DNA of 64,000 nucleotides from an uncultured Planctomycetota bacterium (GTDB lineage Bacteria > Planctomycetota > Planctomycetia > Gemmatales > Gemmataceae): positions 1,248,001 through 1,312,000 of the forward strand of contig CAWKHF010000012.1 of NCBI GenBank assembly GCA_963849325.1. The letters run 5' to 3'. Positions 10,227-39,183 of this stretch are shown here, piece after piece; position 1 is the stretch's first letter, and the number at the start of each line of letters is the position of its first letter. Position numbers and translations under genes: made by a program. The notes below the pieces were generated by a model. The model had not been told where the DNA came from, searched no databases, and worked only from the letters and a program-made list of their open reading frames with translations.

Positions 10227-10230
10227 GCTT

Positions 10231-12792
10231 CTAGTACCTCGTTATGGTCTCGCGCAGATTCAGGATGACGCGCATCACGGCGGTCGTGGCCGCCAATTCC
10301 GCCACGTCCACGTCGGAGGGAACGGGAGACTCGCCAATGTTCAGGAATGCGGAAGCAGCAGCGGAGTCTTTCCGGTAACGTTGAAGTTCCTTGGCGTAAA
10401 GCGTTTGAAGGACCGTTTCTTCCGGGGAAGTGATGTCGCGGAGAAGGGCCTGTTGATAGGCATAATGGAAGCGCTCGGCGGGCGGAGCTTCTTTGACCAC
10501 ACGATAAGCGAAGACACGGGCCGCCTCGGCGTAGGACGGATCGTTCAGCAGAGCGAGGGCTTGAAGCGGAGTGGCCGAACGCGGCCGGTCTCCAATGCAC
10601 GATTGCCGGGGCGGGGCGTCGAACAGGTAGAGACTGGGATGGGGATAGTTGCGACACCAAAAAGTGTAGAGACCTCGACGATGTTGGTTTGCTCCCGTGT
10701 CGGGTTTATAGATTTTGTTCTCCTGCGTGAAACGGTCGGCCCAATATCCATCGGGTTGGTAGGGTTTGACGCTCGGGCCGCCGACATCGCGGGCCAGAAG
10801 TCCGCTGATCGTCAGGGCGTTGTCGCGAATAAACTCGGCGTCGATGCGGAATCGGTTCTGTCGCGTCAGCCAGGTGTTGGCGGGATCGCGCTCTTCCATG
10901 ACGAGGTCTGCCTGGGAGTCCTGCCGATACGTGTTCGACATGAGGAGCAATTTCAGCGTGGATTTGATGTCCCACGAGCGTTCCTGAATTTCGACGGCGA
11001 GCCAATCGAGCAATTGCGGATGAGTCGGTAAGGCGCCTTGAGCGCCGAAATCATCGACGGAGGCCACGAGTCCCTTGCCGAAAGCCAGCTTCCAGAGGCG
11101 ATTGGCGAGGACGCGCGACGGGAGTGGGTTCGAGTCGGAGAAGAGCCACACGGCCAAGTACAATCGATTTAGTCCGACCTCCGGGGGAAGGCGATGAGGA
11201 AACAAGGCGGCGGGTAGGCCGGGCTTCACTTCTTCTCCCGACTTGTCCTGCCAATCGCCGCGCGGAAGGATGCGCACCGGACGCGGCGGCTCCGATGTGG
11301 AAACCAGGGTTGCCAGTGTCTCGTTCTCCACGACACTGCGCCGCGCGACGGTCTCCTCAAGCTGTTTGGAGATTTCCGCCAGACCGGGAGCCACCTTGGC
11401 GTAATAACGCTCGATATTGATGTTTTGATCGGACGTCCGCTGGCTCTTGTCCAGGCGAAGGAACGCCCGGATGTCCTCGGGGACCCCCTTGTAATCTTCC
11501 TGTTTGAGTTTCGCTTCCCATTTTTCCCGTGCCGCTCCCGACTCGGAAACTTTTTTTTGCAACTCGGCGTCGAGCCGTCCGGCCCTGTCCTGGACTTCGT
11601 GCAGCTTCCGCTTCTGCTCCTCGGTTTGCGGGAAGAAGGTCAGGCTTTGTTGCCCGACCGCTGTTTCCTGGATGTCGGCAAAGAAAGCTGCAAGCTGATA
11701 AAATTCCTTTGTGGTAATTGGATCGAATTTATGATCGTGACACTCGGCACATCCCATCGTCAAACCGAGCCAGACCGAGGACACATTTCTCACGCGATCG
11801 GCCGCATATCGCGCTCGCCGCTCTTCCGGCTCGGCGCAGCCTTCTGCCGAATTCATCAAGATGCGATTGTATCCTGAACCGATTCGGTCCTCCTGTTTGG
11901 GCTCCGGCAAGAGGTCGCCGGCGAGTTGCTGGATTGTGAACCAATTGAATCTTTTATTTCGGTTAAAGGAATCGATGACGAAATCGCGGTACAACCACAC
12001 CCGGCGGTCACTATCCACGGAATAACCTTCCGTGTCGGCATAACGCACCAGGTCGAGCCAGGCCACCGCCATCCGTTCCCCGTAATGCGGCGAAGCCAGC
12101 AGTCGGTCCACGAGAAATTCGTATGCGTCAGGGGAAGGGTCGTTGACGAAACTTTCTACCTCTTCGGGAGTAGGCGGGAGGCCGGTTACGTCCAGGGTCA
12201 GACGGCGAATCAACGTCCGGCGATCCGCCTCGGGGGCCGGGTGCAGACCGTGTGCTTCCTGTGCCGAGAGGATGAAAGTATCGACGGGGTTGCGAACCCA
12301 GACCAAGTTGCGAACCGCCGGCAGCGGAGGCTTCACGGGACGGACGAACGACCAGTGCGCATCGAACGACGCACCCTCGTCGATCCAACGGCGGATAAGA
12401 TCGATTTGATGGGGTGTCAGTTGCGGTTTTTTCGACGACGGAGGGGGCATCCGCTTACGGGGATTGGCACTGGTGATCTTCGCCACCAACCGACTTGCGT
12501 CCGAATGGTTCGGCACGATGGCCGATGCCACGGCTTCCTCCCGAACATCCAGGCGGAGACCCGCTTCGCGTGATCCCTCGTCAGGGCCGTGACAGGAATA
12601 ACAATAATTGGACAGGATGGGCCTGATGTCTCGATTATAGTCGGCCCTCTCGTTCTCGCCCAATCCCGACAGCGATACGCTGCTCTCCTGCTGATCCGCG
12701 GCACTTTTCTTGGATACCCGGTGCCACAATCCCCAGACCGAAAGCAGGCTCGCAACTGCCAGGATAGCGACGATACTCCGAAGATGTTTCAT
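10231..12792 (-). CDS. Planctomycete cytochrome c / DUF1549 / DUF1553 (PSCyt1-PSCyt2-PSD1) protein
   Basis: CYSCHGPD heme motif, SPHYGERMA, WLDLVRYADT, CAECHDHKFDP, PTHPQLLDWLA, TPLQALALLND. Confidence 0.9.
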   Translation of the reverse strand: MKHLRSIVAILAVASLLSVWGLWHRVSKKSAADQQESSVSLSGLGENERADYNRDIRPILSNYCYSCHGPDEGSREAGLRLDVREEAVASAIVPNHSDASRLVAKITSANPRKRMPPPSSKKPQLTPHQIDLIRRWIDEGASFDAHWSFVRPVKPPLPAVRNLVWVRNPVDTFILSAQEAHGLHPAPEADRRTLIRRLTLDVTGLPPTPEEVESFVNDPSPDAYEFLVDRLLASPHYGERMAVAWLDLVRYADTEGYSVDSDRRVWLYRDFVIDSFNRNKRFNWFTIQQLAGDLLPEPKQEDRIGSGYNRILMNSAEGCAEPEERRARYAADRVRNVSSVWLGLTMGCAECHDHKFDPITTKEFYQLAAFFADIQETAVGQQSLTFFPQTEEQKRKLHEVQDRAGRLDAELQKKVSESGAAREKWEAKLKQEDYKGVPEDIRAFLRLDKSQRTSDQNINIERYYAKVAPGLAEISKQLEETVARRSVVENETLATLVSTSEPPRPVRILPRGDWQDKSGEEVKPGLPAALFPHRLPPEVGLNRLYLAVWLFSDSNPLPSRVLANRLWKLAFGKGLVASVDDFGAQGALPTHPQLLDWLAVEIQERSWDIKSTLKLLLMSNTYRQDSQADLVMEERDPANTWLTRQNRFRIDAEFIRDNALTISGLLARDVGGPSVKPYQPDGYWADRFTQENKIYKPDTGANQHRRGLYTFWCRNYPHPSLYLFDAPPRQSCIGDRPRSATPLQALALLNDPSYAEAARVFAYRVVKEAPPAERFHYAYQQALLRDITSPEETVLQTLYAKELQRYRKDSAAASAFLNIGESPVPSDVDVAELAATTAVMRVILNLRETITRY

Positions 12793-13324
12793 TGCCAGCC
12801 TCTATCACTTCCCTGAGATGGCAGGACCGACGAGTAACATGAGGAGACCCTTGTCCTTCTTGACTTTGTGCCTCTTGTACGCGATGCTCGCATCCATCGT
12901 CCAGGTCAAATATTCCGCCCTCCCCAAACACAAACGTCGGAACCCACCGTATTGTTAATGGTCTGGTGCCATTCCGGGGTTTCAGGAGCACCAAGCCTTC
13001 ACCTCTATAACTTTCCTCCCCCTCTTTCCACTTCGCTACAAGTCCCCCTTGCCCGCGCCGCCTACTTCGCTTGGCGCTTCTCCCAGGCGTAAGCTGCTCT
13101 GCACAGTTTGCCATGCCACAGGAATGAATCGGCCATCGAAAGTTGACATCCCCTATTCCTTCATCGTCAATCCCATTCTGGATTATTAGTTACTTCCCTT
13201 TCCCGCGATCCCTTCTGACGTTGACCCCATCGGCGGAGAATGGGTATGAGCGTAGAGGGAACGAAGCGCCTCCGCCCGGGTCGATACTTCGTCCTCTCTT
13301 TCGCCTGTGCAGGAGGTTACGAGC

Positions 13325-13885
13325 ATGATTCGTTCACGAAGCGTTCTGGGGTCTCTGGCCGTCGCGTTGCTGACGAGCGGCGTCGCCCTGGCCGGCTCGG
13401 TCACGTCGGGGCCCCAGCTAGAGGAGAAGGTTCCGGGTCCGTTCGCCCCGCTCAACGTCACCGGGCCGAATGCCGGCGAGAAGTTCTGCCAGTATTGCAA
13501 GAACAAATCGCGCCCGGTCGCCGTCGTCTTCGCCAAACAACTCACCCCCGAAGTGGTGCGGCTGCTCCAGAAGATCGATTACGCCACGGCGAAGAATGCG
13601 GAGCGGAGCCTGGGCAGCTATGCGGTCTTTTGCAGCGATTCCGAGGGACTGGGCAAGCAGCTCCAGGACGTCGCCCGGCAGGCGCAGATCCAGCAGACCA
13701 TCCTGACCCTGTACAAGGCCGGCGGACCGGAACGCTACCACCTGTCTGCGGAAGCGGACGTCACCGTCCTGCTCTACACCAACTTTACCGTCAAGGCCAA
13801 CCACGCCTTCAAGGCCGGCGAACTGACGGAGGCCGCGACCGACGCCATCCTCGCCGATCTCGCCAAGATGCTGTCAGACAACTAA
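13325..13885 (+). CDS. Secreted thioredoxin-fold-like protein with CxxC
   Basis: RBS GGAGG; signal peptide ending ALA; SGPQxxEKVPGPFxPLNVTG followed by CQYC. Confidence 0.6.
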   Translation: MIRSRSVLGSLAVALLTSGVALAGSVTSGPQLEEKVPGPFAPLNVTGPNAGEKFCQYCKNKSRPVAVVFAKQLTPEVVRLLQKIDYATAKNAERSLGSYAVFCSDSEGLGKQLQDVARQAQIQQTILTLYKAGGPERYHLSAEADVTVLLYTNFTVKANHAFKAGELTEAATDAILADLAKMLSDN

Positions 13886-14008: not shown

Positions 14009-16228
14009 ATGGTCGCCGCGCGCGGCATCCTGCTGACCGGGGCGACGGGCTTGCTCGGCCGCTACCTTCTGCGCGACCTGCTGGCCCGTGGCCGCCGAGT
14101 CGGCGTCCTGGTCCGCGATAGCGGCGACAAGAGTGCGGCGGATCGCCTCGCGGAACTCGTCGCCTTCGGCAGCGAAACGCTCGGCCGTACCCTGCCGCGG
14201 CCGGTGCTGCTCCACGGCGACCTGACGGCGCCGGGTCTGGGCCTGGGAACGGCGGAGCGGCGCTGGCTGGCACGACAGGCGGAGTCCGTGGTGCATTCGG
14301 CCGCCTACGTCTGCTATCAGCCGAGACCGGACGGCGAGCCGTGGCAGACGAATGTCCACGGCACGCGCCGCTTGCTGGAGCTATGCCGATCCCTGGGATT
14401 GAACGAGGTCCATCATCTGTCCACGGCCTTCGTCTGCGGCGATCGTCGCGGGGTCGTCCAGGAGGACGAGTTGGATTGTGGCGGAGGCGGCGGCAACGCC
14501 TACGAGCAGAGCAAGTTCGCCGCCGAGCAGATGATTCGCGGCTTCGACGGCATTCGCGCGACGATCTACCGCCCCTCGGTCGTCGTCGGCGACAGCCGCA
14601 CCGGCTACACAAGCACTTACCACCACTTCTATCGCTTTCTGGAGTTGGCGGTTCGCCTCTCGTCCGGCCCGGCCGGCGAGAGAGGCTCCCGGCCGCGCCG
14701 GCATCGTCTGCCGCTGCGTCTGCCCTTGACCGGCGAGGAAACACAAAACCTCGTGCCCGTGGACTGGGTCTCGCAGGCGCTGGTCGAGTTACTGCACCGT
14801 CCACGCTGGCACGGCCGCACGTATCATCTCACGGCCCGCCAGTCGGTGCGCCTGCAGGAGATCAAGGCCATCATCGAGGACCTGTTGCACCTCGAAGGCC
14901 TTCAATGGGTCGGCCGCACGGGGCTGACCAGCCCCACCTCCCTCGAACATCTCGTCCAGGAGCAATTTCGGGATTACTGGTCGTATCTGCACAGAGGCCT
15001 CGTCTTCGACTGCCGCAACACGCGCGAGGCGCTGCCGGACCTGCCGCCGCCGCCGTTCGACCGCGACCTGGTGGTTCGGCTGCTACGCTTCGCGCGGGAG
15101 GACGGCTGGGGGCGCGAGCGAAGCCGTAGCGGGCTGACGCGGACTCCAGACCTCGGGCGTTATCTGGAGGAGATCTTGCCCGGACAGATCCAGCAGTCGA
15201 CGATCGCATCGGCCCTGCCGCGCGGGCTGCAATTTGCTCTCGACATCCGCGGCCCCGGCGGAGGACAATGGGCCTGCCACTGCGGTGATCGAACGCTCGC
15301 GGTGCGGCAAGGACCTGACCCCGGCGCCGCCCTGACCTTCCGCATGGATGTGCCTACCTTCGACAGCCTCCTCAGCGGCCGGCAAACGGCGCAGAAAGCC
15401 TTCTTCGACGGACGGATCGAGATGGATGGCGACATGGAGAAAGCCCTCAAACTGGCCATGCTCATCGAGCAATTCCTCGCCCAACGACCGGAGCACCCCT
15501 ACAGCAAACAGAGAGGCTACATGCCGTTGGCGGACGCTAGAAGCACGGTGATCGAAGGGGTCCAGTTCCCCGCCGGTGCGCACCTGCTGGAAGGCGAACT
15601 GGCCTACCCCGAAGAGACGGACGGTCTTCTCGGCGGCGTCGTCCTCGCCGGCTCGCATCCGCTGCTGGGCGGCAACATGCACAACAATGTTGTGCGCGGC
15701 CTCGGCGACGGCCTGGCCGAGCGCGGCCTGGCGACGCTGCGCTTCAATTACCGAGGCGTCGGCCGCAGTGAGGGACCGTCGGTCGATGTGGCCCGGCACA
15801 TGGCCGAGTTCTGGGAGACGTCCCATGTCGCCGGTGAGATGGACCTGTGGCGGGACGTGCAGGGGGCCGTCGATTTCCTCTGTCCCCTCACCGGGGCGGG
15901 GCGGCCGCTGGTCCTGATCGGCTACAGCTTCGGCTGCGCCTTGCTGCCGTCGGTTCGCCCGTCCGAGCCGCCCGCTGCCCTGGTGCTCATCGCCCCTCCC
16001 CTGGGCAAGCACGATTATTCGGAGTTTGAAAAGGTTAAAAGTCCATTGTTGGTGATCGTGTCGGAGGGGGATTTCACTCTGGAGCCGGCACGCCTGCGGC
16101 GGTGGTTCGACCGGCTCGCGGCGGAAAAGGAACTGGTGCAGGCGCCACGGGACAATCACTTTTTCCGCGGCCATGAGCCGTGGCTGGTGGACACCGTGTC
16201 CGCCTTCCTGAAGGAACACCTGCCATGA
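14009..16228 (+). CDS. Fusion of extended SDR/thioester-reductase (NAD_binding_4-like), SCP2 lipid-binding domain and alpha/beta hydrolase
   Basis: Reductase: LLTGATGLLG, HLSTAFVCG, YEQSK, YRPSVVVG, NLVPVDWV. SCP2: AFFDGRIEMDGDMEKALKL. Hydrolase: HPLLGGNMHNNVV, RFNYRGVGRSEG, GYSFG, DNHFF. Start 13979 or 14009 (RBS GAAGGA). Confidence 0.8.
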   Translation: MVAARGILLTGATGLLGRYLLRDLLARGRRVGVLVRDSGDKSAADRLAELVAFGSETLGRTLPRPVLLHGDLTAPGLGLGTAERRWLARQAESVVHSAAYVCYQPRPDGEPWQTNVHGTRRLLELCRSLGLNEVHHLSTAFVCGDRRGVVQEDELDCGGGGGNAYEQSKFAAEQMIRGFDGIRATIYRPSVVVGDSRTGYTSTYHHFYRFLELAVRLSSGPAGERGSRPRRHRLPLRLPLTGEETQNLVPVDWVSQALVELLHRPRWHGRTYHLTARQSVRLQEIKAIIEDLLHLEGLQWVGRTGLTSPTSLEHLVQEQFRDYWSYLHRGLVFDCRNTREALPDLPPPPFDRDLVVRLLRFAREDGWGRERSRSGLTRTPDLGRYLEEILPGQIQQSTIASALPRGLQFALDIRGPGGGQWACHCGDRTLAVRQGPDPGAALTFRMDVPTFDSLLSGRQTAQKAFFDGRIEMDGDMEKALKLAMLIEQFLAQRPEHPYSKQRGYMPLADARSTVIEGVQFPAGAHLLEGELAYPEETDGLLGGVVLAGSHPLLGGNMHNNVVRGLGDGLAERGLATLRFNYRGVGRSEGPSVDVARHMAEFWETSHVAGEMDLWRDVQGAVDFLCPLTGAGRPLVLIGYSFGCALLPSVRPSEPPAALVLIAPPLGKHDYSEFEKVKSPLLVIVSEGDFTLEPARLRRWFDRLAAEKELVQAPRDNHFFRGHEPWLVDTVSAFLKEHLP

Positions 16229-17359
16229 CCTCCCGCACGCTGTCCCGAGAAAAGACCCCTTGTCCTCCGGCGATCTCCGGCCGCGACGGGCGGCTGCGCG
16301 AAGTGCTGGCGCTGCACTTCCATCCCGAATACGGCAGCGAATACTGGCTGCAACGTCAGGAACGGCTGGGCTGGGATGTGTGCGACCGAGTGCGCACGCT
16401 CGACGACCTGTGGCTGCTCGGCCCCACCCCGGCGGCCGACCTGCGGCGATCCCCTTTGCGGGCGTTCATTCCGCGTGCCTTTCATCGGCAGCTGCCGCGC
16501 TTCGTGATCGGCGAGACCGCCGGCACCAGCGGCGCGCCGCTGGCCACGGCCTACCGTGAGGATGAGTTCCAGGCCGCCTTCGTCACGCCGTTCCTGCGCG
16601 TGGCCGAGGCGACGGGATTCCCGCGCGGCGAGCCTTGGCTGTGGGTTGGTCCTTCCGGCCCGCACATCATCGGCAAGGTGGTCCGCGAGCTGGCCCGGCA
16701 GAGCGGCAGCATGGACCCCTTCAGCGTCGATTTCGACCCGCGCTGGGCGAAGAAACTGGCCGACGGATCGCTGGCCCGCCGGCGCTATCTCGATCACGTC
16801 ACGAGCCAGGCGCTGGACGTGCTGCGACGCGAGGACGTCGGTGTGCTGTTCACCACGCCGCCGGCCTTGGCGGCGCTGGCGGAGCAACTGACGGATCACG
16901 CAGCGCGAGGCGATTCACGGCATCCATTACGGCGGCATGAGCCTGACGCCGGAGACGGTCAACGACTTCCGGGCCGCCTTTCCCCAGGCGGTGCATCTGG
17001 CCGGCTACGGCAATACGCTCTTCGGCGTCGTCATGGAAGTGGCTGACGCGCCACGGCAGGACATCGATTACTTCCCGCTGGACGAGCGTGTCCGGTTCCA
17101 CGTCGTGGAATGGTCCGACGATGAGGAGGAGACGCTTCGCGCATGGCCGCCGCGCCGGCGCGAGCGGGGCCAGAGCGGGCGCGTGCTGTTCCATCGCCTC
17201 GACGAGAGCTGCCTGCTGGTGGGCGTGGTGGAGCGCGACGAGGCGGAGCGCATCGCTCCGAGCGCGGCGGCGCGGCCGCTGGGTTGTACCGCCGACGGCT
17301 TACGCAATCCACGGCCGCCGGCCCCACTGGCCGGCCGACTGCAACTGGGGCTGTATTGA
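16225..17359 (+). CDS. EhpF-like atypical ANL-superfamily adenylating enzyme (frameshift near 16900)
   Basis: N-terminal HFHPEYGSEYW...DRVRTLDDL, P-loop-like GETAGTSGAP, later YGGMS and GYGNTLFG; about 375 codons once ORFs 16180..17046 and 16937..17359 are joined. ATGA overlap with the upstream gene. Confidence 0.65.
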
Positions 17360-17360
17360 C

Positions 17361-17422
17361 AATCGATTGCCCAATCCGCTTGCGGCTTAGCGCTAAGCCG
17401 CAAGCGGATTGGGCAATCGATT
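17361..17422. repeat. Perfect 62-bp palindrome with family B core (CCGCTTGCGGCTTAGC)
   Basis: AATCGATTGCCCAATCCGCTTGCGGCTTAGC is followed directly by its exact reverse complement, with no loop. Confidence 0.9.
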
Positions 17423-17439
17423 CGGTCAAGGAGGACCGC

Positions 17440-18312
17440 ATGGAAGCGCTGAAGCGGCTGCGCATCGCCTACACGCCCGACAGCGACGACGCCTTCTACT
17501 ACGACGCCCTGGAGACCGGCCGTGTGACGCTGCCCGGCTACGATCCGGCATTCGATCGTCAACCGATGAGCGTCCTCAACCGCTCGGCCCTGCACGGTCT
17601 GTACGAAGTGACCGCCATTTCCTCTGTTGTTTATCCGCAAATTGCTCGCCGCTATGCGATCCTGAGCGTGGGCACCAGCGTCGGCCGCGGTTACGGGCCG
17701 GTGCTGGTCAGCCGTGAGCCGCGCACCCTGGGCGAGCTGGCCGGGCGACCCGTCGGCGTCGGCGGCATCCCGACGACCGGCTGGTTTTTGCTTCGCTGTC
17801 TCTGCCCCGAGGCGGTGCCGATCGAGATGCCGTTCGACCGCATCGCCGACGCCGTCGCCGCCGGCGAGCTGGACGCCGGCGTGATGATCCACGAGGAGCT
17901 GCTGTACTATCCCCGGCTCGGTTTGCACCGCGTCCTGGACCTCGGAGCGGAGTGGTGCCGGCGCCACGGTTTGCCGCTGCCGGTCGGACTCAACGTCATC
18001 CGCCGCGACCTCGGCCTGCCGGCCATGCAGCGCATCTGCGCCGCGATCCGCCGCAGCCTGCGTCACGGCCTCGAACATCGCCGCGAGGCGCTCGCGCGCG
18101 TCCGCCGCTTTGGCCGCGGCGCGGAAGGCGGATGCACCGAGCGTTTCGTGGCGATGTTCGCCAACGAGGACTCGGTGCACATGCCCGACGATGTGCGCAT
18201 GGGTCTGCGGGTGCTGCTGGCCCAGGTCGCCGACCTGGGCGTCAGCGCCGGAGTGCCGGACCTCGACATCATCGAAGGCGCATCGCCGGTCCTGACGCCG
18301 CAGGCCGCCTGA
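17440..18312 (+). CDS. MqnA/MqnD/SBP-family protein (1,4-dihydroxy-6-naphthoate synthase MqnD-like)
   Basis: RBS AGGAGG; IAYTPDSDDAFYY, SVGRGYGPVLV, GVMIHEELLYY, DLGAEW...LPLPVGLNVIRRDLG resemble MqnD motifs. Confidence 0.8.
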   Translation: MEALKRLRIAYTPDSDDAFYYDALETGRVTLPGYDPAFDRQPMSVLNRSALHGLYEVTAISSVVYPQIARRYAILSVGTSVGRGYGPVLVSREPRTLGELAGRPVGVGGIPTTGWFLLRCLCPEAVPIEMPFDRIADAVAAGELDAGVMIHEELLYYPRLGLHRVLDLGAEWCRRHGLPLPVGLNVIRRDLGLPAMQRICAAIRRSLRHGLEHRREALARVRRFGRGAEGGCTERFVAMFANEDSVHMPDDVRMGLRVLLAQVADLGVSAGVPDLDIIEGASPVLTPQAA

Positions 18313-18334
18313 CTCAACCCCGGAGAGGACAAGC

Positions 18335-19576
18335 ATGGACCGTGCGCAACAATTGCTCGCCGCCAAGCGGGACTTCCTGGTTCCCTGCGTCTATCACTTC
18401 TACCAGCGGCCGCCCGTGCTGGTGCGCGGCGAGGGCGTCTACCTGTTCGACGCCGAGGGGCGGCGCTACCTCGACTGCTACTGCGGCGTCACCGTCGTCA
18501 GCGCCGGCCACTCCAATCCCGAGATCCTGGAAGCGGCCATCGAGCAACTCCGCCGGTTGCAGCACACGACGACCATCTACCTGACCGAGCCGATGCTCGA
18601 GCTGGCCCGCGCCATCGCGGAACTGGCCCCGGCCGCCGCTGCGGCGCAGCTTCTTCTGCGCCAGCGGCAGCGAGGCCAACGAGGGCGCCCTGCTGCTGGC
18701 CGCGCTGGCCACCGGCCGGCGCGAGTGCGTCTACCTGCGCGAGGGGCTGCACGGCCGGACCAAGTGGGCGATGAGCGTCACCGGCCTGGACCTGTGGCGC
18801 ACCGACCCCGATCCGCTGCTGACGGCCCACGCCGTGCCGGGGCCGCGCCATCCCGATAGCCTGCTCCGCCGTCGAGCGCCTGCTGCGGCGAGAGACGATC
18901 GCCGCCGTCATCGCCGAGCCGATCCAGGGCAACGGCGGCATCGTCGTGCCGCCGGACCACTACTGGCCGGAGCTGCGCCGACTGTGCAGCCAGTACGGGA
19001 CACTGCTGATCGCCGACGAGGTTCAGACGGCGTGGAACCGCACCGGCCGTTGGTTCGCCACCGAGCACTGGCAGCGTCGTGCCCGACATCGTGACGGTGG
19101 CCAAGGCGCTGGGCAACGGCTTCCCCATCGCCGCCTACCTGACCAGCGACGCCATCGCCGCCCACTACACGCGGCCGGGCGCGGCGACGTTCGGCGGCAA
19201 CCTGGTGTCCTGCCGCGCCGCCCTGGCCACGCTGCGCTTCCACCAGCGCCACCAGCTGGGCCGCCGCAGCGAGACGCTCGGCGCGCACCTGGCGGAGACG
19301 GCTGCGGCGAGTTGCAGCAGCGTCACCCGGCCATCGCCGAGGTGCGCGGCCGCGGGCTGATGATCGGCGTCGAGCTGCACGGCGCCCGATGGCAGCCCGG
19401 CGGCCGCGCTGACCGATACCGTCCTGGAAGGCATGAAGGACGCCGGCTACCTGATCGGCAAGACCGGACCCGGCCGCAACGTGCTGACGTTCTTGCCGCC
19501 GTTGATCGTCGAGGCGAGCGAGCTGGACGGATTGGTCGATGCGCTCGATCGCGTGCTGACGAGCGAAAAAGCCTGA
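18335..19576 (+). CDS. Class III PLP-dependent aminotransferase (several frameshifts)
   Basis: [70 protein letters not shown] are spread over consecutive frames. Confidence 0.85.
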
Positions 19577-19589
19577 ACGGGGAGGAGTC

Positions 19590-20710
19590 GTGCCATGTCC
19601 TGCGCCGCGTCCGCTCCTGGTGCTGGTTCGCCCTCGCTCTGCCCCTGGCCGTGGGCCTGACCGCGGTCGGCTGCAAGGCCATCTCCAACCGCCTGACCCA
19701 CTGGAAGATGCTCGGCCAGGAAGCCCTCGAAGACCCCATCAAGGCCGTCGGCGGCGACGGCATCGTCTTCGCCCCGCGCCGCGAAGGACCGGCCGCTGAG
19801 CCGCCAGCAACTCGCCGCCGCCACGCCGGAGATGCTGGCCGATTACTACGCCCCCATCTTCGTGCAGCAGCGCGTCAACTCGCAGGCGCTGAAGCACCCC
19901 TATCCGCCCGAGTACGACATGATCGGCCAGGCCCACCTGCGCCACGACGACAAGGGCAAGCTCAAAGCCTATGTCGCCGGCAGCCCAAGGTCTACGCCAT
20001 CTTCAAGCAGCAGGCCATCGACGGGCCATCCGCACGTGCAGATCACCTACACGGCCTGGTATCCCGCCCACCCGCGCATGAAGAACTTCGACGTGGAAGA
20101 GGCGGACATCGATAGCTGCGTGGTCCGCGTCACGCTCGACGCCGACAACGCTCCGCTGTTCTACGAGACCATCGCCGCCTGCGGCTGCTTCCACAAGGTC
20201 TTCGTCGAGAAGCACATCGAGGACGCGGCCCGGCAGACGCTTCGGCGCGCCGGAGAAGGGCAAGAAATTCTGCGTGGCCAGGACGCTCAAGGACGACATC
20301 GACTGGGAGGTGGCCGGCATCGTGGACGAGCCGCGCGACGCAGCCGCGCCGGCCGGTGGTGTTCCTCAAGGCCGGCGAACACAAGGTCTTCGGCCTGGGC
20401 AGCGCCGCCCGCCTGCGCGTGCCGCCGCAGGCGAAGACGCACCCCTACGACATGGTTCCCTACTCGGACCTGTACCGCGTGGCCGTGGACGGCGGCGGGC
20501 AGCCGGCGCCGTTCTTCGACCTGGGCAACGGCGGCAAGGTCTACGGCGCCGAGCGCAAGAAGGAGCGTTTCCTGATGTCGTTCGCCGGCGTGGACAGCGC
20601 CGGCCAGCCGCGCGCCGACGACCAGATCAAGATGCACTTCGATCAGAGCACCTGGGGCGATCCGACGATTTACAGGCAAATACCTGCGTCTGCCGCCCGG
20701 AACGCTGTGA
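19590..20710 (+). CDS. Putative lipoprotein of unknown function (frameshifted)
   Basis: RBS GGAGGAG; lipobox-like LTAVGC; continuous coding across ORFs 18946 (3' part), 19832 and 20356; contains ETIAACGCFHK. Confidence 0.55.
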
Positions 20711-20740
20711 GGACAGACGGCCTGCGGAAGAGGAGTGGTC

Positions 20741-21612
<872 letters not shown>

Positions 21613-21616
<4 letters not shown>

Positions 21617-24127
21617 ACCTCTGGACCTACAACGTCCGCGAGATCCAGCGCCGGCCCGGCCGAATGCTGCTGACGCTTCTCGGCATCTCGCTGGGGCTGG
21701 CCACCGTCGTCGCCACGCGGCTGACCATCCGCACGGTCGATCGGGCCTATCGCGAACTTGTTCGAGGGCGTCGCCGGGCGGGCCTCGCTGGAGGTGACGG
21801 CGAAGGGACAAGGCGGCTTCGACGCCGCCTTCGCGTCGGGCCTGGAATCGGTGCCCGGCGTCAAGGCCGTGGTGCCGCGCATTCAGAGCGCGGCCGCCCT
21901 GGTGGGCGCCTCCGGCAGCGTGGCCGTTCCGGTACTGGGGATCGACCCGCGCGGCGCGGCCGTCGCCGACTGGCCGCTGCGCGACGGCCGTCCGCTCGCC
22001 GGAGACGACGACGCCCTGCTCGATCCGGGCCTGGCGGAATCCCTGCGTTTGACGCCCGGCCAAACGATGGAGCTGTGGGCGCCGGCGGGGCCGGCACACC
22101 TCCATCTGTCGGGCATTCTTCAGCCGCGCGGGGCCAGCGCGGTCACGGGCGGCCAGATGATCGTCTCCCTCGCCTGCGCCAGCGATCTGTTTGAGCTGCC
22201 TCGGCGTGTCAACGGCATCCAGGTGCTTCTCGCGGACGATGCCGATGCCGCTGTCGTGCAAGCGGAGATCGCAACGCCGTTTGCCGGCGGGTCTGGTCGT
22301 GCAGCCGCCGGGGATGCGCGGCGAGATGGCCCGCGCCACCCTGCTTGCCGCCGAGCAGGGGCTGTCGTCGCTCAGCCTCGTCGCCCTCATCGCCGCCACC
22401 TTCGTCATCCTCAACACCTTCCTGCTCAACCTCGGCGAGCGTCGCAAGCAGGTGGCCATCCTGCGATCGCTCGGCGCCAGTCGAGTGCAGGTGCTGCATC
22501 TGCTACTGCGCGAGACGCTCGCGCTCGGTTTGGTCGGCACGCGTGGCGGGCTGCGGCGCCGGTGTGGCCCTGGCCGTGGGCCTGAACTATGCGATGCAGC
22601 AGTTCCTCGGCATCGCCCTGCCCGCGCCTGCGACTGAGTGCGGGGCCGTTCCTCCTCGCCGCCCTGTTGGGGCCGGGTACGTCGCTGGCCGCCGCCGGCC
22701 TGCCCGCCTGGCGCGCCAGTCGCCGGCCGCCGCTGGCGGAACTGCTGCCCGGACAGGCCCACAGCGAGGAGATGCTGCCGCGATCGCTCTGGCAGCTCGG
22801 CGTGCTCCTGCTCGCCGTGGGACTGGGATTACAAATCGGCCTGTGGACACGGCTGGATTCTCCGAGGCGGCCGGACGGGTACTCCTGGCCCCCGCCCTCG
22901 CGCTTCTCCTGGTCGGAGGCGTCCTGGCGCTGCCGCTGGTGGTCGATCCGCTGGTGAGCCTGGCTGGCGTCTTGCCGCTGGGCCTGGAGGGAAAGCTGGC
23001 CGCGCAGCAGCTGGCGCGGCATCGCGGCCGGACGAGCCTGACCAGCGGCGTTCTCTTCCTCGCCCTGGTCGTGGCCATCGCCTTCGGCCAATCGCTGCGG
23101 ACGACGCTCGCGCGATCTGCGGCACTGGTACGGACAGACCATCGTCGCCGATTTCCTGGTCCGCGGCGCCATGCCGGACACGTCGTTTCTGCTGGCGCCG
23201 GCGTTACCCGAGGCGCTCGGCGAGGAGATTCGCCCGCTGCGGCGATGGGGTCGCGGTGGATCGCATCGCCTTCGTGCCGGCGGAGATCGAGGACCGGCCG
23301 GTCCTCGTCCTGGCCCGGACCTTCGCGGCCGACCGCTCCCTGCCGCTCGATCTGCAGGAGGGAGACGAAGCGAGTGTTCGGCGCGGACTGCTGGCCGGCG
23401 AGGCCGTCCTGGGGACCGGACTGGCGCAACGACTGGGGCTGCACCAGGGAGGTGTCCTGAAGCTGACGACGGTGCAGGGCGTCCGCGAGGTGCGCATCGC
23501 GGGGACCGCCGTGGAATATGCCAGCGGCGGCCTGGCCCTGTACCTGGAGTGGGAGACGGCCCGCCGTCTCCTCGACGTGCCCGGCGTCCACGTCTTCCTG
23601 GTCAGTGGCAAGACGGGCGGAGTGCCCGCGCTGGCCCCCGCCCTGCATGGCTTCTGCGAACGGCATCACTTGCTGCTGCAATCCAACGCCGACCTTCGCG
23701 CCTTGATCGATGCCATGCTGGGCCGCGTCACCGGCGTCCTCTGGGGACTGATGGCGCTGGCTTTCGCCGTGGCGTCGTTGGGGATCATCAACACGTTGAC
23801 CATGAACGTCCACGATCAGACGCGCGCGTTCGGCGTGCTGCGCGCCTGGGCCTGAAGCGCGGCCAGGTGGGCAAGATCGTCGTGACGCAAGCCGTGCTGC
23901 TGGCCGGCATCAGCCTCTTGCCTGGCGCGCTGGCCGGCATCGCCCTGGCCTATGCGATCCATCGCGCGGGTGCCGCCTGGGCGGGACCGCAGGCGGCCTT
24001 CCGGGTCGACGGCGTGCTGGTCGTCGGAGCGTGTGGGCTGTCGGTGGTCATGGCGGTGCTGGCTTCCCTGGCGCCGGCGCGGCGGGCTGTCAGGCATTCG
24101 GTGGCGCAGTCGCTGCACCACGGTTGA
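21613..24127 (+). CDS. ABC transporter permease, FtsX/MacB-type with two repeats (multiple frameshifts)
   Basis: RRPGRMLLTLLGISLG, ILNTFLLNLGERRKQVAILRSLGA, GIINTLTMNVHDQTRAFGVLRA, LASLAPARRA. Confidence 0.8.
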
Positions 24128-24248: not shown

Positions 24249-27200
24249 TCACGGTTCGACGACGGTTCGTCCAGCGAGACGTTGCAACGATGCTTTCGCC
24301 TCACGAGTCAGACCGTCTTCCAGCGCTCCCGCAGCCAGCGAACGGAGCACGGTTCGCGCCTCGCCGCTGCCGATGTGTTCCAGGACTTCCACGGCCCGCA
24401 AAGCGCGTAGTTGTTCGGTCGAGAGCGTTCGGATCTCCACCTGTTCGAGCAAGGCCCGCAGCCGTCGCGCCATCTCCAGCGAGGGCTTGGCCGCCAGTGC
24501 CTTGCGTAAAGCCGGTTCAGCCCGTTCGCCCAACCGGCGCAACTCCTGCGAAGCGCGATTGCGCGGCTCGAATTGATCGCTGTCCAGATCGGCAAGGAGA
24601 CGAGTCAAGCGTTCTTCCTCCACGCGCGGCACCGGCCGAAGATGTTGGGCCAGAAAAGCGACCACGGAAGGGCCGGCGGCAACGAGTCGCCATAAGGCGC
24701 GATAGGCTCGCATACCATCCTTGTCGCCGAGTTCGGCCCACAAGCGTTCGATCTCGCCGGACTTCACACGGCGGGAAGACCATTTGCCGTTCGGGCAGAT
24801 GCCCGTCACGTCCCACACGCAAGCCGTGTAGTCGAGGCTGCCCGAAGCCAGCAGTCGGCCGTCCGGCGAGAACGCCAGCGACCAGATCCATTCGCGGTGG
24901 CCGGTGAAGCGGCCGCGCTCCTTCCCGCTGGCCTGCTCGAACAGCAAGATGGTAGCGACGTCCGCAGCCGCCAACGTCTTGCCGTCTGGGGAAATCGCCA
25001 TCGCTGGGATGTTGCCCGTCCGCACGGGGATGCGGCGCAATTCTCGTTTGCTGGCCACGTCCCACAGGCGCAAGGAATTCCCCGGATGTCCCTCCGTCAA
25101 AGGCCTCTCTTCGTGAGCCGCGAGGAGGTACTGGCCGTCGGGAGAGAACGTCAGGCAAGTGGGCATCGTAGGATCGTGCCAGGTGAATCGGTCTGCTTCC
25201 TTTGCCGTCCTCGTCTCGTACAGGTAGATAATCCGGTTATCGAGAGACGGCGGAGCAACCGCCAAGATCCGGCCATCGGGCGAGAAGACGTGGGGGTGGC
25301 GGTAGCGTTGGTCGCCCGTCTTCTGGAGGGAACGCAACAGTTTGCCGGTCGTCGCGTCCCAGAGGCGAAGCCGGTCATCCTGGTGCCCGACCGCCACCAT
25401 TTTTCCATCCGGAGAAAAATCCGCCTGATCCTTGTCAATAGGCGGTTCGCCGATGCGACAGCACGCCTTGCCGGTCGCCGGCTCCCAGACGTGGAGCACG
25501 CCCTGGAGATTCGCCAGGGCGGCCCTTTCGCCGTGGGCCGTCAAGGCGGTGCCGAGAAGCACGTCGGTTCGCCGGCCAAAACCTTCCGGGAGATCGTGCA
25601 AGGGCGTCAGCGGCTCGCCGGTGAGGGGATTCCACGAGCCGATTCGGCCCCCACAACAGCTGGCGATCAGCACTTTTGCGTCCCGGCTAAAGCGTACGGC
25701 CGTGACGTAATCCGGCAGTCCCAAAACAGGCATAAGCGGCTTGCCTGTCTGGGCGTTTCGCAGCCGGATGACACCGGATTGCACTTGGGCCAACACCTTG
25801 CCATCGGGAGAGAATGCCAGCTGGACGGTGAAGTTGTTGCCCTCATCCCAGCGGCGTAGCTTTTCTCCCGTGGCCGCCGCGAAGAACTGGGTTTGATTGC
25901 CCCAGCCGGCGCGCCGGTCTCCACAAACGAGAACCTGGCTATCCGGGGAGAAGCACAGGCAAGAAGCGTAGAATTCCGGATTCCAATCGACCTGGTTGGT
26001 TTCCAAAACGACTCGATTGATTTCTTTCCCCGTGACGGCATCCCACAGGAAGAGCACGTTGTGCGAACGGTTGGCGGCGAGCCTTTTGCCGTCCGGGGAG
26101 GCGGCGAGATGACAAAAGCCGTCTTCCGGGCGGTTCCTCTTCTGGTAGATTCTCCGAACTTCCTTGCCTGTGGTCATGTCCCACCAGCGGATGCTCGCTC
26201 CATCTCCCGAGACCAAAGTCTTGCCGTCCGCCAAGAAGACGAGGCTATCGCTGTTGGCCATGCTCTCCGCCGTGAAGCGACGTATCTCTTTCCAGGCGGC
26301 CGTATCCCACAACCGAATAGTCGTATCCTCCATCCCCGCAGCGAAGTGCTTACCGTCTGGGCTAAAGGCGAGGACTCCCGTACCGTCCGGATCGCCCTCG
26401 ATTTGGCGAAGCTCCTTGCCGGTACGTACGTCCCAGATCCGGATCACGGAGCTACGCAAGCGAGCCGTCGCCACCATCTTGCCGTTCGACGCGAGGGCAA
26501 AGCAAGACCATCCACCGCCATCTGGGATCGCTATTCGCTGCAATTCCTTTCCCGTCGTCGTATCCAGAAAGCGGACAACGCCCCTGTTCTCGCACAGAGC
26601 CAAGCTTTTGCCGTCGGGTGCAAACGCCAGAGGTCCATGACTCTTACCGCACCACCAGCGCACCGTGCCGATGCGGGCCACGGCTCGCGGCGGCAGTGGA
26701 TCGCCGAAACGATCCGTGCGTGCGCGCACGTCGCGCTCCGCTCTGGGCAGGTCTGCTTCTCGCGCCGCCCCTTCCGTGACTGACTCCAGTTTGTCCTCGG
26801 GTCTCTGCCAGGCAAACCCGGCGACAGCCGTGGTAATCACGGAAGCCGCCAGCGTGAAGACCACGAGGCGGAGTTTCGTCACGGCGAACATTTGCGTCGC
26901 CTGGCGCAGCAGGGACGCGACCGAGGCGGAGATGACCCCGGCCGTCGGCCCTCCTGAGGCGAGGGCAAGCGCGGCGTGCAAGGTTCCCTCCACCAGCGCG
27001 GCCGAAACCGCGGATGCCGGCGCGGTGGCGAGGGCCAGTCCGGCGAGGACGGCCGACAACTCCACGCCGCGACGCGCCAATCGCCGCCGCAATTGCTCGC
27101 GCGCCCGGCTGAGCGTGCCGGATACCGTACCCTCCTTCCAGCCAAGCTGCCCGGCTACCTCGGCCAAGCGCTTGCCCTCTAATGCACACAGCACGAACAC

Positions 27201-27662
27201 GGCGCGTTGCCGCGCAGACAACTTCTGGATTTCCTCATCGAGAATGGCCTGCACTTCCCGCCAGGACGACTCGGCGGCGACTTCCGCTCGCGGCATGTTG
27301 GCTCCCTTGCGTTCGTGCTTCCGCCGGGTGATCGAATCGCGCCGCGCACGCCAAGCGATGTGATAGGCCGTCCCGTGAAGCCAGCTCGCCAACGCCGTGC
27401 CTTTGCGGATGGAGGCGGCCTTGCGAGCCAGCACGAGAAACGTCGCTTGAAACGCATCCTCGGCGTCCTGCTCCTGGCCCAGCACATTGCGGCAGACGCT
27501 CCAGACCATGCGGCCGTGTCGCTGCATCAGCGCCGCGAAGGCGTCGCTGGCCCGCTCGGTGACAAAGCGTGCCAGCAGTTCCGCATCGGAGAGTGAGGCC
27601 GCCTCGGGCGCGGCCCACCGGCGAAGATGTTCGAGGATGGCCGGCCATTGTCCGCCGCTCAT
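24249..27662 (-). CDS. ECF sigma-70 factor with C-terminal WD40-repeat domain
   Basis: Start MSGGQW at 27662. SDAELLARF...RHGRMVWSVCRNVLG...DAEDAFQATFLVL and GTVSGTLSRAR (sigma regions 2 and 4), then TDRFGDPLP and many AFSPDG...WD repeats. Confidence 0.9.
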   Translation of the reverse strand: MSGGQWPAILEHLRRWAAPEAASLSDAELLARFVTERASDAFAALMQRHGRMVWSVCRNVLGQEQDAEDAFQATFLVLARKAASIRKGTALASWLHGTAYHIAWRARRDSITRRKHERKGANMPRAEVAAESSWREVQAILDEEIQKLSARQRAVFVLCALEGKRLAEVAGQLGWKEGTVSGTLSRAREQLRRRLARRGVELSAVLAGLALATAPASAVSAALVEGTLHAALALASGGPTAGVISASVASLLRQATQMFAVTKLRLVVFTLAASVITTAVAGFAWQRPEDKLESVTEGAAREADLPRAERDVRARTDRFGDPLPPRAVARIGTVRWWCGKSHGPLAFAPDGKSLALCENRGVVRFLDTTTGKELQRIAIPDGGGWSCFALASNGKMVATARLRSSVIRIWDVRTGKELRQIEGDPDGTGVLAFSPDGKHFAAGMEDTTIRLWDTAAWKEIRRFTAESMANSDSLVFLADGKTLVSGDGASIRWWDMTTGKEVRRIYQKRNRPEDGFCHLAASPDGKRLAANRSHNVLFLWDAVTGKEINRVVLETNQVDWNPEFYASCLCFSPDSQVLVCGDRRAGWGNQTQFFAAATGEKLRRWDEGNNFTVQLAFSPDGKVLAQVQSGVIRLRNAQTGKPLMPVLGLPDYVTAVRFSRDAKVLIASCCGGRIGSWNPLTGEPLTPLHDLPEGFGRRTDVLLGTALTAHGERAALANLQGVLHVWEPATGKACCRIGEPPIDKDQADFSPDGKMVAVGHQDDRLRLWDATTGKLLRSLQKTGDQRYRHPHVFSPDGRILAVAPPSLDNRIIYLYETRTAKEADRFTWHDPTMPTCLTFSPDGQYLLAAHEERPLTEGHPGNSLRLWDVASKRELRRIPVRTGNIPAMAISPDGKTLAAADVATILLFEQASGKERGRFTGHREWIWSLAFSPDGRLLASGSLDYTACVWDVTGICPNGKWSSRRVKSGEIERLWAELGDKDGMRAYRALWRLVAAGPSVVAFLAQHLRPVPRVEEERLTRLLADLDSDQFEPRNRASQELRRLGERAEPALRKALAAKPSLEMARRLRALLEQVEIRTLSTEQLRALRAVEVLEHIGSGEARTVLRSLAAGALEDGLTREAKASLQRLAGRTVVEP

Positions 27663-27893
27663 GGTATCGATCTCATTTCGGGCCGTAGGTGTATCTACCC
27701 TTATAGTCCCCTGCCAGTGGCAAACCCTACACCATCTTCCCAAAATGCGTCGGCCGAATTTGCGGATCGTGCCGGTTGCGATGCCTCCTCGGCCTGTTTT
27801 CCGACCACGTGAAGTCGAGAATCGCTTGCATCGCAACCTGAACTGTTGTACCCTCTCTGGGTTGTGTACCCAGTTCGAGCATGGACGTGCCTC

Positions 27894-37813: not shown

Positions 37814-37938
37814 AACCACGGATGAACACAGATGAACGCAGATAAGACAAAGACAAAGGATAAAGGGCGTTTATTTTGTCTCTATTTCTTTTTTGTCTTT
37901 TTTGTCTTATCCGTGTTCATCTGTGTTCATCCGTGGTT
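37814..37938. repeat. Palindromic element, family A variant (10-nt CACGGATGAA units)
   Basis: AACCACGGATGAACACAGATGAACGCAGATAAGACAAA...TTTGTCTTATCCGTGTTCATCTGTGTTCATCCGTGGTT; overlaps the sucD stop. Confidence 0.85.
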
Positions 37939-38809: not shown

Positions 38810-38815
38810 AGGTAG

Positions 38816-39172: not shown

Positions 39173-39183
39173 GAACGACTCCT

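Follow-up and report, generated by a model that had tools for sequence, protein, structure and literature searches.

EhpF and EhpG of D-alanylgriseoluteic acid biosynthesis in Pantoea, and GriC and GriD of grixazone biosynthesis, combine a lidless ANL enzyme with an ALDH-type partner and use no carrier protein. The ALDH partners presumably receive the acyl group on a Cys. In LuxCDE, a lidless adenylating enzyme (LuxE, with a swinging, acyl-accepting conserved Cys near the C-terminus) is accompanied by a hydrolase and an ALDH-like reductase (LuxC). A branch of the futalosine pathway is known from PM100117/PM100118 biosynthesis in Streptomyces caniferus (GonM1-4). Duplicated futalosine genes there reportedly send 5,8-dihydroxy-2-naphthoate (DHNA) from menaquinone to another product, activation of the carboxyl is proposed, and deletion of the dedicated mqnD (gonM4) lowers product formation, removing most of the naphthoquinone unit (PMC4763440).

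The operon described here lies in a window of 64,000 nucleotides from an uncultured Planctomycetota bacterium. Like EhpF/EhpG and GriC/GriD, it encodes a lidless ANL enzyme, with the terminal Tyr also seen in EhpF, and no carrier protein. However, the cassette ligase forms a separate subfamily and is accompanied by an SDR R domain, SCP2, a Ser hydrolase and a lipid exporter, with no ALDH-type partner, phz or AHBA genes. Compared with LuxCDE, the terminal residue is Tyr instead of Cys, the reductase is an SDR instead of an ALDH, and there is no luciferase. An R-type reductase and a class III aminotransferase are shared with MxcG/MxcL (myxochelin B) and the CARs, but the cassette lacks A-T-R architecture and PCP and scores far below the cut-offs. 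Whereas the PM100117/PM100118 pathway uses ACP/PKS carriers and decorates a macrolide, the cassette has no carrier or PKS and contains lipid-handling and often cytochrome genes. The key positions of its MqnD paralogue (MqnD*) and the upstream genes present in the carriers are as in the futalosine menaquinone pathway (MqnA-E, MqnP, MqnL); however, the cassette would activate the carboxyl rather than remove it, and gammaproteobacterial carriers lack MqnP. In its anaerobe form, the cassette has a U32 pair and SCP2, as does the UbiU/UbiV/UbiT O2-independent ubiquinone module, but these U32 proteins score below the UbiU/V cut-offs (171 vs. 440; 84 vs. 275), and no U32 was found in the window's genome, where MqnD* occupies its slot. 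A literature search found no description of the operon.

Organization and conservation of the operon

Eight genes are tightly packed on the + strand (14009..24127), with purine-rich, RBS-like stretches upstream of the starts (Table 1). The packing, common direction and RBSs had been noted in the preliminary description, which counted seven genes. The operon matches NAD_binding_4 (E-value of 4e-45), SCP2 (4e-10), Hydrolase_4 (2e-10), PF02621 (3e-57), Aminotran_3 (three pieces), ABC_tran and MacB_PCD/FtsX in Pfam. As described previously, genes for NRPS/PKS or ACP, phz genes and further mqn genes are absent from the 69 window ORF references scanned with Pfam. A promoter and terminator scan gave nothing useful.

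Table 1. Genes of the operon, with positions in the window
Gene product	Positions	Strand	Basis and remarks
Thioester-reductase (R-domain-type extended SDR) + SCP2	14009..15540	+	Pfam; 69% to intact 511-aa relative; exact end blurred by 1-nt loss
Alpha/beta hydrolase, Atu1826-like, separate gene	15521..16228	+	Own RBS and ATG; motifs; relatives; PDB 3TRD/2I3D
EhpF/GriC-family lidless adenylating enzyme, "tier A" subfamily	16225..17359	+	Ends ...LQLGLY-stop; one frameshift near 16897-16900
MqnD*, cassette-specific paralogue of 5,8-dihydroxy-2-naphthoate synthase	17440..18312	+	PF02621; intact ORF
Class III (omega) aminotransferase	18335..19576	+	Aminotran_3; about five frameshifts
Unnamed lipoprotein, CGC motif, possible NLP-like beta-sandwich fold	19595..20710	+	About five frameshifts
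LolD/MacB-type ABC ATPase, accessory	20741..21450	+	ABC_tran; frameshifted
Double FtsX/MacB-type permease, accessory	21613..24127	+	MacB_PCD/FtsX; six or more frameshifts

The ligase, aminotransferase, lipoprotein, ABC ATPase and permease genes of the window contain frameshifts. The same genes are intact in relatives, and sucC, selA and selB, ordinary genes of the window, are broken up alike. Thus, the frameshifts probably reflect assembly error, and pseudogene decay is unlikely. The operon is genuine and widely conserved. A one-base assembly slip also explains the 749-residue reductase-SCP2-hydrolase protein reported previously, and this protein almost certainly corresponds to two genes. Where the two meet, four of the five aligned relatives have 1 nt more than the window, the fifth being a frameshifted assembly itself, and the relatives have separate ORFs; the three-domain fusion was therefore rejected as a real protein. 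The hydrolase has its own start (AGAGAGG and ATG at 15521), and none of the 70 loci carrying both domains (some of them duplicates) has them in one ORF.

The catalytic Thr, Tyr and Lys of the reductase are conserved. It has the NAD_binding_4 SDR domain expected of fatty acyl-CoA reductases, but its match to a fatty acyl-CoA reductase (E-value of 3e-20) is weaker than those to the R domains of NRPSs and CARs (6e-50 to 1e-28), and the nearest solved structures are the MxaA, PKS and CAR R domains. Scores against the MxcG (96 vs. 2300), CAR (47 vs. 1300) and PRK07201 (163 vs. 549) models are below the cut-offs. The conserved gene set contains no A-T-R architecture or PP-binding domain, the reductase being a stand-alone R domain with SCP2; an ACP-KS neighbor gene occurs in locus L137 only. 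The hydrolase has the GYSFG Ser, Asp and HFF His motifs.

Gene counts were made in 80 loci, 43 of them long, by a reference-based neighbor scan that may miss families outside the reference set; histidine kinases are not among the counts, as their reference was in a wrong frame. The core (thioester-reductase with SCP2, EhpF/GriC-type ligase, Ser hydrolase and lipid exporter) was found in members of the Planctomycetota, Desulfobacterota, Hydrogenedentota and Gammaproteobacteria and in 60 of the 132 genomes of the anammox class; its distribution is patchy. This recurrence across phyla supports the earlier proposal that the genes form a conserved unit for biosynthesis and export, free of carrier proteins, which would activate an aromatic acid. 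SCP2 is found in all 43 long loci, whereas the reductase is displaced from four, with close homologues elsewhere in three of these four genomes. The aminotransferase, whose intact relative scores below every specific NCBIfam cut-off, is absent from 14 of the 43 and tracks U32 or MqnD* (28 of the 29 loci with either vs. 1 of the 14 without). U32 and MqnD* never occur together (0/80), and the same slot was swapped at least four times on the tree. The idea that U32 stands in for a missing housekeeping MqnD was discarded, two PF02621 genes being present in many U32-type carriers. Cytochrome genes are present in 15 of the 21 U32-type long loci vs. none of the eight window-type cassettes; in anaerobes, cytochrome b and multiheme c genes are embedded in the operon. 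YceI is recurrent near the cassette, and ArnT-like lipid glycosyltransferase genes are interleaved in the anammox loci. As for ladderanes and hopanoids, no such genes recur in the loci, and a literature search listed nothing relevant.

The lipoprotein assignment made previously is borne out by a lipobox-like LTAVG-C in the window protein, and its family has an invariant CGC motif. Structural comparison with the NLP beta-sandwich gave a Z-score of 9.4-9.5 and an r.m.s.d. of 3.7-3.9 over 166-172 aligned residues with 10-11% identity (Foldseek E-value of 2e-3). The NLP fold binds membrane lipids, and NLP/Nep1-like proteins carry a GHRHDWE heptapeptide; the heptapeptide is not in the 27-sequence lipoprotein consensus, which shows no sign of a toxin. 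An Atlas search of the lipoprotein matched unnamed clusters only. The ABC exporter, previously taken as part of the cassette, is not core; an MMPL pump takes its place in most carriers (MMPL in 32 of the 43 long loci).

The adenylating enzyme and its probable substrate

The homology of the ligase to EhpF is confirmed by sequence and fold. EhpF is the sole significant PDB match of the window ligase (E-value of 2e-24), a profile comparison gave an E-value of 8e-46, and the nearest folds are those of EhpF (TM of 0.76) and of aryl ligases. The ligase has ~360 residues without the ANL C-terminal lid, and the P-loop (ETxGTTG), YGN and ERD motifs are present. A variable linker precedes a terminal Tyr that is near-invariant (114 of 116 ligase-family sequences, EhpF itself and all eight outside members), and the alignment contains no conserved Lys or Cys (top Cys column, 17/37). 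From this pattern we infer that the C-terminal Tyr is a candidate built-in acyl carrier. GriC is presumably homologous to EhpF, as RefSeq labels also suggest.

In the family tree, the window ligase subfamily is one side of a branch with a support of 100; the row "Halo", a wrong-frame translation, affects just the drawn root and is disregarded. A separate clade is represented in a Streptomyces cluster, flanked by mqnE and mqnD; the genes of this cluster are ordered as in the naphthoquinone block of PM100117. PKS-linked members are near stand-alone acyltransferases in three of the four regions viewed. The direct neighbor of the ligase is the hydrolase in 48 of the 80 loci and the reductase in three (hand count), and the hydrolase often occupies the slot held by the ALDH partner in EhpF/G-type clusters. 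No Aldedh (ALDH-like reductase) gene was found in the 80 cassette loci, but one is present beside the tier-B ligase copy. The scanned window ORFs and the recurrent cassette neighbors include no phz core genes. Phenazine tailoring was rejected because these scanned genes include neither phz genes nor an ALDH partner.

MqnD* belongs to PF02621 and to the MqnD rather than the MqnA branch, in agreement with its first assignment. It forms its own clade (support of 100/100) apart from the housekeeping MqnD and MqnA of the genome and is not orthologous to the former, since carriers keep a second, canonical MqnD. Its PDB matches are AF1704 and TTHA1568, and it retains the Asp14 and His145-Glu146 positions of TTHA1568, which we take to be catalytic. 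MqnA, the housekeeping MqnD, MqnC/E and MqnP are encoded elsewhere in the window's genome, and PF02621 is present in 54 of the 55 carrier genomes. The MqnD query matched in all 41 genomes of the window's order; futalosine genes are thus general there, and only the gammaproteobacterial data discriminate. In Hydrogenedentota and Gammaproteobacteria, mqnA/B/C/D/E adjoin the cassette. Among the 81 genomes of one gammaproteobacterial order, 11 have an MqnC/E-type pair, 11 have the ligase and 10 have both, these 10 being kin of one clade, three of which helped to build the query. The ligase and the MqnC/E pair are on one contig within 35 kb in nine of the 10. MqnP exceeds the cut-off in none of 10 gammaproteobacterial carriers vs. 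five of five controls. The MqnL model TIGR03701 was not used because two of the five controls exceeded its cut-off, making it non-discriminating. The annotated cassette neighbors include no MqnP or MqnL family match.

Thus, the ligase substrate is probably futalosine-derived DHNA or a close derivative, an assignment that also holds if the naphthoate is reduced (see below). The preliminary description had the ligase activating an aromatic or lipid acid; the aromatic acid is retained and is probably a futalosine-pathway naphthoate.

Possible pathways and products

Most likely, a precursor of vitamin K2 is channeled by the operon into a fat-soluble, quinone-like molecule that has not been described before, and the product is then exported; a non-isoprenoid, lipid-tailed naphthoquinone ester or amide is the best guess for it. 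The exact order of the five steps of this futalosine side branch is tentative, at somewhat less than an even chance. MqnD* would provide DHNA or a close derivative from the MqnA/E/B/C steps of the host. The ligase would adenylate the carboxyl and keep the aryl group bound to its C-terminal Tyr through an ester link, which would make an ACP/PCP unnecessary. The reductase-SCP2 may turn a long-chain acyl-CoA/ACP into an aldehyde or alcohol, and the aminotransferase, where present, may put an amine on the chain or the ring. The Ser hydrolase, a putative aryl transferase, would receive the aryl group and couple it to the lipid alcohol or amine. Finally, the MMPL pump (ABC in the window) would deliver the product to the inner membrane's outer face, where it may meet the lipoprotein or, in anaerobes, the cytochrome b/multiheme c module and act as a redox carrier.

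The constant SCP2, the frequent MMPL pump, the recurrent YceI and the possible NLP-like fold argue for a lipid tail. The transfer step is favored by the adjoining hydrolase, its position in the ALDH slot and the acyltransferases near the PKS-linked members, and the cytochrome genes of the U32-type loci would encode redox partners. However, the proximity of the reductase to R domains speaks against acyl-CoA reduction, the lack of cytochrome neighbors in window-type cassettes against a redox role, and the tracking of U32/MqnD* by the aminotransferase, left unexplained, against chain amination.

Reduction of the naphthoate carboxyl itself, the route of the preliminary description, is fairly unlikely, yet stands near-equal to the lipid-tailed ester or amide route, and the affinity of the reductase to R domains fits it at least as well. 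The ligase and the R domain would form a two-protein aryl-carboxylate reductase by the logic of GriC/GriD, with an SDR for the ALDH. The aminotransferase would then give an aminomethyl-naphthoquinol, or a second reduction a hydroxymethyl product, for SCP2 and the hydrolase to handle or acylate. GriC adenylates and GriD reduces 3,4-AHBA (PMC10179220). Some ligase-family members are annotated as "arylcarboxylate reductase", and the reductase matches the MxcG and CAR models, below cut-off. However, an SDR R domain lacks an acyl-accepting Cys, a gene for a carrier protein is absent, the reductase rarely adjoins the ligase and can be displaced while SCP2 stays, and the aminotransferase is often missing.

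Another chorismate- or prephenate-derived aromatic acid, made via a neofunctionalised MqnD* or U32, with a product that is not a redox cofactor but a secreted antimicrobial or signal, is improbable. The exclusive and repeatedly swapped U32 and MqnD*, a hydroxylase and a DHNA synthase that need not share a step, would fit it, as would the low, conditional expression and the patchy distribution. The whole mqnABCDE block traveling with the cassette and the cytochrome genes inside the operon in anaerobes argue against it. Less probable still is a fatty-acid reductase module resembling LuxCDE, in which the hydrolase would stand for LuxD, the ligase for LuxE and the reductase for LuxC; it would supply an envelope lipid with fatty aldehydes, alcohols or amines, and the mqn genes would be bystanders. 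One of the Atlas clusters close to the ligase bears the automatic name LuxE, and SCP2, MMPL, the ACP-KS gene of L137 and the ArnT-like glycosyltransferases are compatible with it; but the ligase fold is nearest to EhpF and aryl ligases and has no conserved Cys, and MqnD* and the 10/11 mqnC/E linkage without MqnP would be left unexplained. Although class III aminotransferases and ABC systems commonly serve catabolism, a role of the operon in the breakdown or uptake of an external amine or aromatic acid is highly improbable, since the transporters are of exporter type (MMPL/HAE3, LolD/MacB), the conserved set has no solute-binding protein or ring-cleavage gene, and the linked mqn genes are biosynthetic.

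The futalosine side branch with a lipid-tailed product would, in its furthest form, create a new class of membrane electron carrier, a rather unlikely extension: a futalosine naphthoquinone in which an alkyl chain in ester or amide linkage replaces the prenyl tail, the ligase Tyr as a swinging acyl carrier, tuning by interchangeable U32/MqnD* and the aminotransferase, and, in most anammox genera and in other anaerobes, connection to a cytochrome b/multiheme c chain of its own. In published expression data, the anammox cassette genes are nearly silent (RPKM 0-16; PMC7438415), and expression of the genes for the reductase, SCP2 and the ligase is 2.4- to 5.6-fold lower on an electrode (PMC7188810). 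Thus, a constitutive or electrode-induced respiratory role is unsupported, and an electrode-induced electron shuttle in anammox bacteria is contradicted by the latter data.

If true, the diversion proposed here would be a new branch of the futalosine pathway across several phyla, bundled with mqnABCDE in the gammaproteobacterial loci. It would include genes flagged as anammox core yet never interpreted and would predict a findable new quinone-like lipid. The Tyr carrier would offer a testable answer to how the lidless EhpF/GriC-type enzymes of phenazine, grixazone and PKS-starter clusters pass on the acyl group.

Gene content and conservation of the operon

The co-directional genes bearing the domains named in the preliminary description are present in the window. 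The reductase-SCP2-hydrolase fusion proposed there proved to be an artefact: in four of the five relatives aligned, the junction holds one extra base, and no open reading frame joins the reductase-SCP2 and hydrolase domains in the 70 loci holding both (duplicates included). The apparent fusion is thus explained by a 1-nt loss at the junction, and the operon therefore comprises eight genes rather than seven, encoding a reductase-SCP2 protein, a hydrolase, an EhpF/GriC-type ligase, a cassette-specific MqnD paralogue (MqnD*), an aminotransferase, a lipoprotein, an ABC ATPase and a permease. Compared with intact relatives, the ligase has a single frameshift, the aminotransferase and the lipoprotein have about five apiece, the ABC ATPase has one or two, the permease has at least six and MqnD* has none. 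The window, at G000:C12:1248001-1312000, belongs to a planctomycete assembly with numerous indels, and its housekeeping genes are split likewise. The 192-residue gene preceding the operon had no Pfam or NCBIfam match and no counterpart in 40 related loci.

Coordinates of the operon and of other features in the window and in the loci compared
Feature	Location	Strand	Remarks
Operon	window 14009-24127	+	
192-residue gene	window 13307-13885	+	signal-peptide-like start, CQYC motif; co-directional, immediately upstream of the operon
Ordinary planctomycete genes	window 8787-12792; 24249-28631; 37937-40992; 46375-49510		several split by frameshifts; include DUF1501 with PSCyt/DUF1553, an ECF sigma-WD40 fusion, sucCD, selA/selB
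Second EhpF-like gene, tier B	G000:C2:542814-545942 (own genome)		with ALDH partner; also in loci L061-L075
Plasmid cluster with EhpF-family gene between mqnE and mqnD	L175:24412-31448 (Streptomyces angustmyceticus p1, NZ_CP104318.1)		
MqnD* tandem duplication	L108:11108-12925		within the cassette
Lipoprotein family fused to thioredoxin domain	L050:6834-8483; L057:11802-13256		

Of the phylum's 401 genomes, 109 match the N-terminal part of the ligase, and these fall into two tiers: 30 genomes, own genome included, with E <=5e-49, and the remainder with E 4e-36 or weaker. The alignment of the cassette-type (tier A) ligases gave at least 598 matching stretches in the genome contigs, the best 80 of which were analysed; titled records among the matches listed belong to Brocadia, Kuenenia, Scalindua, Anammoxibacter, Gemmataceae, Phycisphaerae, Desulfobacterales, Hydrogenedentota and Gammaproteobacteria. 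Among the 43 loci of at least 16 kb within these best 80 of at least 598, SCP2 occurs in 43, the reductase in 39, the hydrolase in 35, MMPL in 32, the aminotransferase in 29, U32 in 21, the lipoprotein in 19, PF02621 in 14 and the permease in 2. Conserved synteny was confirmed, with the gene order of the window up to the lipoprotein found again in L106, L118-L120, L122, L133 and L142, and in L108 but with an MMPL gene inserted. Loci L165, L167 and L170, from the same genus or family, show this order as well; others are truncated by contig ends, and in L171 MqnD* is present with no cassette neighbours detected. MqnD* is carried by 8 of the 10 genomes from the same genus, by 1 of 14 from elsewhere in the family and by 0 of 16 further relatives. 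Within the anammox class, 60 of 132 genomes hold the ligase, distributed by family as 33/47, 20/28, 2/2 and 5/14, with 0/41 in the other seven families (0/31 in one of these). The operon is real and conserved across phyla. Among the loci compared, L119/L167, L122 and L133 are the only ones with the ABC pair after the lipoprotein. Neither the MMPL nor the U32 query matched the own genome; since the MMPL query was unmatched, the ABC exporter probably stands in for MMPL there.

Published data on the anammox orthologues were taken from parts of three studies. The orthologues from Brocadia, Jettenia, Kuenenia and Scalindua are classed as anammox core genes; 7 of 8 genomes contain them, annotated with unspecific labels such as 'Phenazine antibiotic biosynthesis protein' (PMC7814187). 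The locus tags were tied to the cassette by annotation and gene order, not sequence; a term search of the portion of the main text covered returned no mention of U32, aminotransferase, CoA ligase or sterol. The Kuenenia cassette genes have RPKM values of 0-16 (PMC7438415). In the electrode data covered, the log2 changes were -1.27 for the reductase, -2.48 for SCP2 and -1.30 for the ligase (each with padj < 0.02); the pump, U32, aminotransferase and hydrolase did not change significantly (PMC7188810). No description of the cassette was found in full-text searches of a library outside which most subscription journals and bioRxiv supplements fall, and the cassette is apparently not yet described.

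The ligase and its probable link to the futalosine pathway

The predicted model of an intact ligase orthologue (pLDDT 87) matches EhpF best (TM 0.76), followed by PaaK-type aryl ligases; the adenylate-binding motifs are kept and the lid domain is absent. The C-terminal residue is Tyr in 114 of 116 near-full-length sequences and the terminus is G-[LVI]-Y in 104 of 116 (duplicates included, over-long or cut reading frames excluded), the two exceptions to Tyr being a contig end and L130. EhpF ends in VIEGVY, and 8/8 outside family members end in G-[VLI]-Y. About ten variable residues, of low confidence in the predicted model, precede the Tyr, and the ligase alignment contains no conserved Lys or Cys column. 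We infer that the terminal Tyr may be a swinging aryl-ester carrier, for which the terminal Cys of LuxE offers an analogue; a literature search on this idea found no relevant paper.

MqnD* forms a 16-row clade (100/100 support) distinct from canonical MqnD and from MqnA, and the own genome holds all three together with MqnC/E and MqnP. The futalosine pathway is not normally used by Gammaproteobacteria, which therefore provide an informative substrate test. In the gammaproteobacterial loci L137, L144 and L152, mqnA/B/C/D/E adjoin the cassette. In the 81-genome order of G414, 11 genomes have two short MqnC-like matches, all slightly below the family cut-off, besides a common long-frame match read as putative FbiC; the ligase occurs in 11/81 genomes and together with the MqnC-like pair in 10, G495 and G489 being discordant. 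MqnP scores are 111-137 bits in 10/10 gammaproteobacterial carriers tested versus 263-301 in 5/5 controls (cut-off 181). These carriers, whose assemblies are incomplete, seem from their gene content to produce naphthoate without completing menaquinone. In genus g133 (G132, G266, G311, G393; L161), each of the four genomes has a single PF02621 match, which in G132 adjoins an MqnC/E gene, and the PF02621 search of these four found no second (MqnD-type) gene; G132 also holds MqnP and MqnL.

As an independent line of evidence, a plasmid search for the wider ligase family gave 29 records, eight of which were examined. The S. angustmyceticus p1 cluster has the same mqn block gene order as the PM100117 cluster, but with an EhpF-family gene inserted, a candidate DHNA (5,8-dihydroxy-2-naphthoate)-activating enzyme. 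Deletion of the dedicated mqnD of PM100117 gave products without naphthoquinone (PMC4763440, in the part covered). Other plasmid members lie beside phenazine, anthranilate or PABA genes with ALDH, or beside PKS/acyltransferase genes, and one record is unannotated. The tier-B type is matched in 20/20 genomes of family f2; its neighbours in other lineages include Fe-ADH, a HemN-like radical SAM enzyme, PQQ-type propellers, an SSF symporter, a TonB receptor, a glycosyltransferase and a thioesterase. With its ALDH, the tier-B gene seems to belong to a distinct GriC/D-type cluster that is not yet described.

Exchange of modules between cassettes

U32 is found in 31 loci and MqnD* in 14 (assigned by hand from the MqnD/MqnA tree), and the two occur together in 0 of the best 80 of at least 598. 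The aminotransferase is present in 28 of 29 long loci with U32 or MqnD* versus 1 of 14 with neither (same best 80). In these counts related carriers are not independent, and 'neither' applies at the level of the locus rather than of the genome. On the tree of 58 ligases, MqnD* requires four changes, every one forced by well-supported branches, and in sister loci one and the same slot is occupied by either U32 or MqnD*. The swap may be a single step achieved in two ways, or it may reflect the oxygen regime; U32 proteins are an O2-independent hydroxylase family. No locus in the best 80 of at least 598 has both the lipoprotein and cytochrome genes; in anaerobes, genes for petB/ExtP-like cytochrome b and multiheme c lie within the operon.

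A radical SAM/DUF3641 gene adjoins cassettes without aminotransferase in L050, L101 and L132. DUF547 and YceI-like genes recur in or beside the cassette (L136, L137, L144, L108, L109; L085, L100, L107). In family f35 (L036-L047), the cassette is interspersed with ArnT-like PMT_2, GT2 and LAB_N genes and with a sigma-54 two-component pair, a lead towards the inducer of the cassette.

Proposed chemistry and product

The reductase retains the SDR triad, is closest to the R domains of MxaA, PKS and CAR, and carries a fused SCP2 in 54 loci; the hydrolase retains its Ser-Asp-His motifs, and the aminotransferase passed no specific family cut-off. The lipoprotein model (pLDDT 94) resembles the NLP beta-sandwich (Z 9.4-9.5, following match 3.4), a similar predicted fold from which the NLP heptapeptide is absent.

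Two leading readings share their ends, which we consider probable: the carboxyl of DHNA would first be adenylated by the ligase, and a lipophilic naphthoquinone-type product would finally be exported. Tentatively ranked first is a middle step in which the aryl group would be passed onto a lipid tail made by the reductase, because SCP2 is universal (43/43 long loci within the best 80 of at least 598), the ligase is usually adjoined by the hydrolase (48/80 by hand count, same best 80), the SDR has no Cys to accept the acyl group and the exporters belong to lipid types. Only slightly less likely is direct reduction and amination of the naphthoate carboxyl; the GriC/GriD precedent (PMC10179220, in the part covered) and the R-domain affinity of the reductase argue for it. 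The cassette combines known kinds of enzyme in a new way, and its product might with rather low probability represent a new class of redox lipid.
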